From NCBI GenBank assembly GCA_965215275.1, contig OZ244044.1, forward strand, positions 477,548 to 541,547: DNA of 64,000 bases, given 5' to 3'. Within the stretch, counting starts at the first letter, position 1; each line of letters begins with the position of its first letter. Origin of the DNA: Thermodesulfobacteriota bacterium. GTDB lineage: Bacteria > Desulfobacterota_D > UBA1144 > Nemesobacterales > JAJCZQ01. The position numbers and the translations under genes were made by a program. Below the pieces are notes generated by a model that saw only the letters and a program-made list of their open reading frames with translations, made no database searches and was not told the origin of the DNA. Below are positions 40,780-41,390 of the stretch, piece by piece.

Positions 40780-41390
40780 GCTAACCCCCCCCCCCCCGAG
40801 ATTTCATTATTCCAGACTCCCTCCACATTTATATCCTCTCCGGCGGTTATTGCCTGCCCGTCAAAACTCAGCTGCCCTGTATTTTTCAGATGCCACTGAC
40901 ACCCGTATAAGGGATCATCGGTAAAATTGGTAGTAATGCCTCTGCAATCAGATAGCAAAGTATTATAATCAGTATCTGTTGCAACTGTAAGCTGGTAACT
41001 ATCAGCGCCGCTGCTTCCCACAACTATATAGTACGTTCCAGGCCTTAGGCGAGCTGGGATATTGTCAGTACTGCTTGCTATAAGATCATCATTGCTGTCA
41101 CAAAGCTGTAAACTGTAATCTAAATTATCATTGGTGAAGGTTGTCTCTATATTTACATTAACGTCAGATGCCGGGTCTATCTGAAAATATTCCAGTCCAC
41201 CGGCACTTTCAAAACTTCCATCGTGTGCCGCTGCGTCCACTGTCAACGTGGCTTCAACCGTTGCACTGGAGTTACAATTATTATCACTGGTCTGACCATA
41301 TGCACCTATGGACATAAAACATAGAAAAGAAAATAACAGTAAAACTACTGATATGATATTCCTTAAGGTAATCTTCTTACAGTTGTTCAT
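40722..41390 (-). CDS. Giant surface protein, 5' part: signal peptide plus PPC-like N-domain plus start of S8 domain, terminated prematurely after the G13 tract
   Basis: 222-aa ORF. It is about 90% identical by eye to the N-terminus of 42281..44371 up to ...VEGVWNNEISGGGG, then out-of-frame residues (LAWRWLVMVW...). Confidence 0.9.
   Translation of the reverse strand: MNNCKKITLRNIISVVLLLFSFLCFMSIGAYGQTSDNNCNSSATVEATLTVDAAAHDGSFESAGGLEYFQIDPASDVNVNIETTFTNDNLDYSLQLCDSNDDLIASSTDNIPARLRPGTYYIVVGSSGADSYQLTVATDTDYNTLLSDCRGITTNFTDDPLYGCQWHLKNTGQLSFDGQAITAGEDINVEGVWNNEISGGGGLAWRWLVMVWTPRMRILPPM
40785..40797 (-). repeat. Homopolymer G13 on the coding strand (C13 on +) at the frameshift point
   Basis: Counted directly (ctaacccccc cccccccgag). 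The coding strand reads ATC TCG GGG GGG GGG GGG TTA..., and the downstream frame GTT AGC GTG GCG... needs 11 or 14 G. Confidence 0.95.

Follow-up and report, generated by a model that had tools for sequence, protein, structure and literature searches.

The 64,000-nucleotide (nt) stretch of DNA analysed here in full, hereafter the window, comprises positions 477,548 to 541,547 of contig OZ244044.1 (assembly GCA_965215275.1) of a Thermodesulfobacteriota bacterium, and carries on its reverse strand a large gene for a subtilase-like protein that is divided into two open reading frames (ORFs) by an uninterrupted run of 13 G residues. The coordinates of this gene (the target), of its neighbours and of the comparable runs in related genes are collected in Table 1. 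An initial annotation of the same DNA had placed the run, G13 on the coding strand (C13 on the forward strand), and had reported the resulting split into ORFs of 222 and 1545 codons; the sequence bears out the former, and the ORF coordinates and translations the latter. The upstream product ends in ...NNEISGGGGLAWRWLVMVWTPRMRILPPM at a stop 20 codons past the glycine run (a longer stretch of the same end reads ...VWNNEISGGGGLAWRWLVMVWTPRMRILPPM), and the listed 1545-codon ORF (36142-40779, reverse strand) opens with VAVVGDGMDSSHEDL and is free of stops throughout. A shift of -1 leads from the upstream to the downstream frame, and the junction peptide of the joined frames reads EGVWNNEISGGG(G)VSVAVVGDGMDSSHEDLAANVNSSLNHDYSGNSNVFNPSSSHGTQ....

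Table 1. Features of the split gene, its surroundings and its family. Positions refer to the window unless preceded by L002, L034 or L036, which are loci from sister-strain assemblies; ON denotes the run lengths at which the full-length frame is open; aa, amino acids.
Feature	Position	Strand	Remarks
G13 homopolymer (C13 on forward strand)	40785..40797	-	codons 198-202; separates two reading frames; ON lengths 11 and 14
5' ORF, 222 aa	40722..41390	-	signal peptide, ~120-aa N-terminal domain, start of S8 domain, 20-codon out-of-frame tail
3' reading frame	36142..40784	-	from second base of GTT codon overlapping last G of run
Content of 3' frame	~39973-40797; ~39403-39708	-	rest of S8 subtilase domain; proprotein-convertase P-domain; followed by He_PIG repeats and C-terminal anchor
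Codon GGT, Gly208 (G11 numbering)	40765..40767	-	catalytic Asp position of subtilase triad, from alignment
Tandem array of He_PIG (putative immunoglobulin-like) repeats	36600..39361	-	279-bp units, 9.9 copies, 86% identity; more divergent copies flank array
Conserved C-terminal signal	36145..36321	-	GGGGGC-AISDQ..., one hydrophobic helix, RRKRR; common to nearly all paralogues
A9-G11 homopolymer pair	41394..41413	-	coding strand TAA-A7-G11-AGC-ATG
Co-oriented upstream ORF	41412..42047	-	211 aa (207 aa from ATG), N-terminal hydrophobic segment
Paralogue, 696 aa	42281..44371	-	S8 + P-domain + anchor, full Asp-His-Ser triad, no homopolymer run
Paralogue, 973 aa	50687..53608	+	S8 + P-domain + three He_PIG repeats + anchor, full triad, no run
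Orphan copy of family 5' cassette	19387..19454	+	TTCTTGACATTC, 17 nt, TATTAT, ATG, ATA-C12; exact copy; C12 at 19443-19454 out of frame
C9, codon ~9 of family gene (MN..F R. I P P P)	L002 8632		ON 8, 11; out of frame
C9, codon ~9 of family gene	L002 9745		ON 8, 11; out of frame
C9, same 5' site (codon ~9), another gene	L034 9954		ON 7, 10; out of frame
C8, same 5' site, another gene	L036 10025		ON 8; in frame, yields 826-aa P0012
C10, between S8 and P domains	L034 19371-19380		ON 8, 11; out of frame; gene divided into products of 540 aa (P0010) and 956 aa

When the run was replaced in silico by 10 to 16 G residues, only G11 and G14 gave one continuous ORF (1748 and 1749 codons, respectively), as the rule of 3n+2 residues given in the initial annotation predicts, and every other length terminated at codon 202-223. 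The first stop fell at codon 221 with G10, 1748 with G11, 202 with G12, 222 with G13, 1749 with G14 and 203 with G15. A change of repeat number in this test toggles the target between a full-length and a truncated product. The two paralogues named earlier are both present in the window, 65-68% identical. In each of them TGGAAT and GTTAAC are separated by 21 nt, and in the target TGGAAT and GTTAGC by 23 nt, so that G11 restores the paralogue spacing exactly and G14 adds one Gly. The proposed alignment with the paralogues is therefore upheld for the spacing, but it is not residue-for-residue: VAVVD[NS]G of the paralogues corresponds to VAVVGDG in the target, a difference at the position of the catalytic Asp.

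The protein reconstructed across the run consists, in order, of a signal peptide, an N-terminal domain of ~120 aa whose only Pfam match is a non-significant, PPC-like one, a Peptidase_S8 domain (PF00082, E = 3e-34) followed by a P-domain (PF01483, E = 6e-16), He_PIG repeats (PF05345, E = 1.7e-20) and a C-terminal tail. Its best match among solved structures is ASP of Aeromonas sobria (PDB 3HJR/3WQB, E = 3.7e-34), with furin and kexin also among the best PDB matches. Alignment with 3HJR places VAVVGDG against VAVVDDG; His243 and Ser433 are kept, and the Asp-His-Ser triad of the target is incomplete, with Gly at the Asp position. The target has the S8 fold, and judged by these residues its product is probably non-catalytic. 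The word protease, as used in the initial annotation, is thus doubtful, since the catalytic Asp codon is GGT and most of the ~36 paralogues lack one to three of the catalytic residues. The fuller label of protease-adhesin overstates what the sequence supports; the members of the family are presumably display or adhesion scaffolds, and the target itself would be a surface-exposed, non-catalytic member.

Across the paralogues, the C-terminal signal comprises four to six Gly residues, an invariant Cys, ~12 polar residues, a hydrophobic helix (LIPVSVVIRRK) and a basic tail, and this tripartite shape of Gly/Cys motif, hydrophobic helix and basic tail resembles that of known sorting domains. Among the curated sorting-domain models compared with it (GlyGly-CTERM, MYXO-CTERM, Synerg-CTERM, JDVT-CTERM and LPXTG), none scored above its cutoff; Synerg-CTERM came closest, with 14 bits where its cutoff is 22.5, and the others were weaker. 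At one sister-strain locus (L034) a gene for an Rce1-like (CPBP) intramembrane protease, at 9043-9678, lies directly 5' of a family gene and is a possible processing enzyme.

A second long G run, absent from the initial annotation, lies at the start of the same gene. This G11 (41394-41404) ends 3 nt 5' of the target ATG, and is preceded on the coding strand by an A9 (41405-41413) that overlaps the stop codon of the upstream 211-aa ORF, such that the 21-nt intergenic ribosome-binding region is composed of two homopolymers and AGC, and nothing else. In all three available assemblies of a related strain (described below) the corresponding region reads TAA-AGC-G10-AGAGC-ATG, as opposed to the TAA-A7-G11-AGC-ATG of the window; the region thus differs by G11 versus G10 plus altered flanks, and is far more changed than its surroundings. 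No promoter-like site between the 211-aa ORF and the target emerged from a promoter scan, which gave only weak sites 5' of the 211-aa ORF; co-transcription of the two is accordingly probable. The 211-aa protein has no similarity to Pfam, NCBIfam or PDB entries. A role for it as a trans-acting propeptide or chaperone, in the manner of ORF2 of Aeromonas ASP, was considered and set aside as unsupported, there being no detectable similarity between them.

The distribution of run lengths indicates that the G13 run is not a chance feature. The 64 kb of the window hold 200 G/C runs of length 4 and 30 of length 5, none of length 6 to 10, and then one each of length 11, 12 and 13, where a model of independent, identically distributed bases would give ~12 runs of at least 6 and 0.007 of at least 11. 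The absence of runs of 6-10 alongside three of 11-13 implies that runs of middle length are avoided and that a few long ones are kept. A pool of 152.6 kb from the same species, made up of the window and four loci from sister-strain assemblies, displays the same gap: nine G/C runs measure 8-13, two measure 6 and no run measures 7. Of the nine longer runs, seven are located inside genes of the target's family or immediately 5' to them, and an eighth is the C12 of the orphan family promoter cassette. The sole long G/C run outside the family or cassette (L036 6188-6196; C9 on the forward strand of that locus, G9 on the coding strand) is in frame in a gene for a 587-aa PF03601 (YeiH-like) membrane protein. 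Six family genes have a run within their coding sequence; five of these are out of frame and the sixth is in frame.

The family itself is large, with at least 36 paralogues on the source contig of 1,990,023 bp. In a 13-member alignment, Asp-His-Ser is kept only in the clade of the target (P0001, P0003, P0005 and the 696-aa neighbour), and the other clades have D-R-A, D-R-S, S-H-A or S-T/S-F at these positions, that is to say Arg, Thr or Ser in place of His, Ala or Phe in place of Ser, and Ser in place of Asp. On these alignments the family would consist largely of pseudoproteases. The closest paralogue, P0001 (85% identity; elsewhere in the source genome), has an intact leader and triad, and has an abnormal end, ...NEVPGVHSRNSNKPSGNTA, without the C-terminal anchor, which suggests a frameshift or an assembly collapse inside the near-identical He_PIG repeats; the anchor is likewise missing in P0034, P0037 and P0043.

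The runs of the family occupy three different positions within its genes, with different ON lengths, and the frame shift that would restore the full product is +1 in some members and -1 in others; shifts in both directions are what is expected of stochastic switching. At L034, the internal run between the S8 and P domains gives a product of 1541 or 1542 aa at C8 or C11. The four 5' runs all lie behind a conserved cassette, GAAATTATTCTTGACATTC...AAAGTA(G/A)AAT...ATGAACAT...ATA-Cn, and in each of the four the Pro codons of the 'IPPP' leader are an uninterrupted C run despite the divergence of the genes that follow, which implies selection on the DNA run itself. Complete leaders with 'IIPPP' are found in P0015, P0017 and P0041 of the source genome. 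In most of its other annotated paralogues the start lies within the signal peptide or beyond it (MVIAAKGQSS..., MSINAYGQ..., MQTGHEDL...), giving truncated N-termini of the kind that a gene caller is expected to return after a 5' frameshift, and this fits with many copies being frame-shifted at their 5' runs.

The related strain is represented by the draft genome GCA_964348445.1 and by two short-read assemblies of the European Nucleotide Archive with the syntenic region. Its ortholog is 97.1% identical to the target over the first 591 nt, without gaps, and each of the three assemblies comes to an end close to the internal run: the first does so in degraded, G-rich sequence ~70 nt beyond it, another stops 1-2 nt short of it, and the third, found by a homologue search with the 198 aa that precede the tract, stops 43 nt short of it, in adapter sequence. 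All three break at or near this point, and the 97%-identical strain thus also has a run at this site, of a length that cannot be read there. The 591 nt before the tract are under purifying selection, with a ratio of non-synonymous to synonymous change (dN/dS) of 0.14 (11 synonymous and 6 non-synonymous changes), compared with 0.15-0.16 in neighbouring housekeeping genes; together with the intact 1545-codon frame, this argues against an old pseudogene. Two scans of JGI metagenome contigs for the exact pattern spanning the run returned no match, and a comparison of ON and OFF states between the draft and the source genome by orthologous pairs was rejected, the best pairs being just 84-91% identical. 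Copy number in the array also differs between these ~97%-identical strains: the sister strain (L001 6570-10000, against window 42082-44670) holds an extra protease paralogue, P0002 (710 aa), and a Cas12f1-like TnpB fragment. The 84-91% identity of the best paralogue matches between the genomes stands beside a difference of no more than ~2% in the DNA of nearby housekeeping genes.

Phase variation in Campylobacter and Neisseria is known to rest on G/C runs, both intragenic and intergenic (PMC8355987, PMC5320596). Several of the features that mark such loci are found here, in an uninterrupted homopolymer of at least ~8 within an ORF (G13), in another at the expression signals (G11), and in an excess of long runs concentrated in a family of surface proteins. 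Given these observations, we consider it probable that G13 is a slipped-strand switch, a hypermutable simple-sequence repeat in a fast-evolving family of anchored surface proteins. It is reasonable to postulate that during replication the nascent or the template strand slips within the run, whereby one G is added or lost; that lengths of 3n+2 (11 or 14) would then yield the full exported protein of 1748 or 1749 aa, and other lengths a translation product ending after 202-223 codons; and that a lineage would in this way switch the target protein on and off at its surface, at high frequency and reversibly. The A9-G11 pair would act as the ribosome-binding region, probably tuning translation or its coupling to the upstream ORF. 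Sister genes would follow the same principle, through poly-C in their signal-peptide codons ('IPPP') behind the promoter cassette or through poly-C between the S8 and P domains, and a population would display varying subsets of the family. Such a mechanism matches established cases of slipped-strand variation (PMC8355987, PMC5320596, PMC1891110). The bimodal runs, their concentration in the family, the uninterrupted Pro and Gly codons, the shifts in both directions, the mixture of frames, the intact downstream frame and the purifying selection together favour a contingency system over decay. Of the ON/OFF switch proposed in the initial annotation, then, the mechanism is well backed by circumstantial evidence (the bimodal runs, the second run, the second strain, the sister genes, an intact downstream frame of 4.6 kb and the low dN/dS before the tract), and the variation in length that it entails was not observed. 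The further statement that the gene is 'currently OFF' is less secure; it turns upon a single base of a 13-nt homopolymer in an assembly, where G14 would be ON, and we regard an OFF state so close to ON as uncertain.

A number of observations weigh against a slipped-strand switch at this site. No length heterogeneity was seen at G13, and in the related strain each of the three short-read assemblies breaks off there; the position of the run at codon ~200 is unique to the target, the usual site in the family being at the 5' end; the frame-shifted status of some 30 other paralogues of the source genome is read from their annotated N-termini only; and six of the eight intracoding runs are out of frame against about two-thirds expected, an excess that is not significant and is compatible with decay too. 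The loss of the catalytic Asp in the target can also be read as early degeneration. Last, G13 and the C12 of the window are each exactly one base short of an ON length, as systematic under-calling would give, and this leads to the first of the explanations that have to be set against a switch, namely that the true modal length is 14 (or 11), that the gene is intact and its split an error of the consensus, and that the run need not switch at all. Long homopolymers are under-called in long-read consensus sequences, G14 lies a single base away, the other coding run of the window has the same deficit, and the failure of short-read assemblies to pass the run marks it as an error-prone site. However, the other genes checked in the window are all intact, inclusive of ProRS, HslU and the 211-aa ORF with their runs of A8 or T8, and the short-read assemblies of the sister strain have C9 and C10 out of frame, at lengths that are usually called correctly there. 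Even a G14 would be a hypermutable site, given the lack of G/C runs of 6-10, so that a miscall affects the OFF state more than it does the switch. Overall, we think it unlikely that an error of this kind accounts for the split.

A plain pseudogene is an improbable explanation as well, albeit one with several observations on its side. It would have arisen by a frameshift in a run expanded by mutation, as part of decay in a reduced (~2 Mb), host-associated genome in which the truncated paralogues are also dead; the replacement of the catalytic Asp by Gly, the N-terminal truncation of most annotated paralogues of the source genome, the anchors missing from P0001, P0034, P0037 and P0043, the insertion sequence (IS) and TnpB fragments and copy-number differences of the array, and the out-of-frame state of five of the six family genes with an intracoding run would all fit with this. 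Decay does not, however, readily explain 1545 downstream codons without a stop, a dN/dS of 0.14 before the tract, the retention of the run in a strain ~3% diverged, or runs that stay uninterrupted despite the divergence of the family when runs of 6-7 are nearly absent elsewhere. Furthermore, the loss of catalytic residues is family-wide and occurs in long intact ORFs, hence it is no mark of decay, and members bearing an in-frame run do exist (P0012, P0015, P0017 and P0041). It is also conceivable, though we believe the chance to be very small, that the gene is permanently out of frame and yields full-length protein at a low level by recoding, either through slippage of RNA polymerase or through a -1 ribosomal frameshift on G GGG GGG. 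There are precedents in dnaX, in IS elements and in the poly(A) rescue of endosymbionts; long homopolymers promote transcriptional slippage, the downstream frame is indeed -1 to the upstream, the run would permit tRNA-Gly to re-pair perfectly in any frame, and in the assemblies most family genes that have a run are out of frame. Against recoding, the shift needed is +1 in some members and -1 in others, other members are in frame, neither a stimulatory structure nor a conserved slippery context was seen, and G/C runs are poorer substrates for slippage than are A/T runs. Some leakiness by slippage may accompany a switch at the DNA level.

Beyond the target gene, the orphan cassette of the window is followed by sequence that does not belong to the family. 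With C10 or C13 in place of C12 it would open an ORF of 106 or 107 aa (feature 19387-19744), which contains LVVTDPPFNKNK, a DPPF motif like that of DNA methyltransferases, and has a weak match to an adenine DNA methyltransferase (NCBIfam E = 0.003), with no match in Pfam and no homologue in the fetched loci; it is probably a truncated remnant. The cassette lies within a low-GC stretch (16037-21336; 0.35-0.40) that includes the 'nucleotide modification associated' genes Nmad2 and Nmad3 (17308-18639), a gene with a Diphthami_syn_2 domain and a fragment of another (16037-17098 and 19067-19318) and, judged from sequence motifs only, an AbrB/MazE-like and Doc/Fic-like pair (20627-21336). This stretch looks like a mobile or defence islet adjoining the C12 cassette. 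Elsewhere in the window, a 2-kb stretch of 32% GC (4001-6000) contains a 339-aa ORF (4100-5119) without a Pfam match, and a gene for an IS1595-family transposase is located at the window end (63007-63948).

A broader reading, which we offer tentatively as possible and no firmer, is that of combinatorial display. At least 36 mostly catalytically dead subtilase-fold/He_PIG proteins would each be switched independently by a run at one of at least three positions (in a portable cassette of promoter, leader and poly-C; as poly-G before the first catalytic strand; or as poly-C between domains), most of them being silent, in a probably host-associated genome of ~2 Mb; the same tentative reading includes capture of the cassette in front of at least one unrelated gene. 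A scan of species-representative genomes with the family alignment returned only distant relatives of 28-48% identity, many of them in metagenome-assembled genomes, often with sponge-associated names (Candidatus Poriferisodalis, Poriferisocius), and an association of the source bacterium with a sponge or another host would be a guess.

In literature searches by accession and by topic, neither the organism nor the system was found to have been described. The phase-variable outer membrane proteins (OMPs) of Neisseria, among them the Opa family, PorA and Opc, provide one comparison. As here, Opa is a multigene surface family with repeats in the region coding for the signal peptide and with copies that switch independently, and in PorA a run in the promoter is joined by one in the coding sequence, comparable to the pair of G11 and G13 (PMC5320596). 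The Opa repeats differ in being CTCTT pentamers, in a family of ~11 members versus at least 36 here and in unrelated beta-barrels. In Campylobacter jejuni, uninterrupted G/C homopolymers of ~8-13 nt reside in the ORFs and intergenic regions of surface-structure genes, with bimodal tract lengths genome-wide and a frame that sets ON or OFF (PMC8355987, PMC8437040). The genes concerned there mostly encode glycan-modifying enzymes, in a cultured pathogen for which switching rates have been measured, whereas here the genes belong to one large family of paralogous, anchored proteins, in a bacterium that is uncultured. Helicobacter pylori and Bordetella likewise have poly-C/G runs in 5' coding or promoter regions (OMPs, fimbriae and restriction-modification systems, switched by homopolymers or dinucleotides), and their theme of phase-variable methyltransferases is echoed by the C12 before the methyltransferase-like stub (PMC4209511, PMC1891110); the ORF here is, however, ~107 aa and probably a remnant, such that no phasevarion can be claimed.

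With regard to the protein, ASP of Aeromonas sobria has the same S8 and P-domain architecture, and its GxGVNVAVVDDG, HGT and GTS motifs align with the target. The target differs from ASP by the Gly at the catalytic Asp position, by ~12 He_PIG repeats and by a C-terminal membrane anchor, and the neighbouring 211-aa ORF has no detectable similarity to the ASP chaperone. Subtilase-fold pseudoproteases such as CspC are also comparable, being long conserved ORFs with an S8 fold and without catalytic residues, but the match to the NCBIfam CspC model (E = 0.0076) is far below its cutoff, which speaks against membership at the sequence level, and CspC serves in germinant sensing as opposed to the adhesion or display that we presume here.

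Slipped-strand phase variation is textbook knowledge for a few mucosal pathogens and has rarely been documented in uncultured or symbiotic bacteria, whose genomes come from consensus assemblies in which such runs are hidden or mis-called. Should the G13 run prove to be merely mis-called, it would still serve as a useful warning about the annotation of genes split by homopolymers. If the run is a switch, annotated frameshifted pseudogenes in genomes of this type may be live contingency genes, and tract-length distributions in existing reads would become testable markers for population dynamics inside hosts. Moreover, the switchable repertoire of anchored subtilase-fold proteins, most of them non-catalytic, in which this small-genome bacterium invests would be very large and would point to strong and fluctuating selection on its surface through host recognition, phage or grazers. 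Were combinatorial display to hold, the contingency repertoire of the organism would match in size those of specialised pathogens, in a bacterium and on a protein scaffold for which none has been described before.

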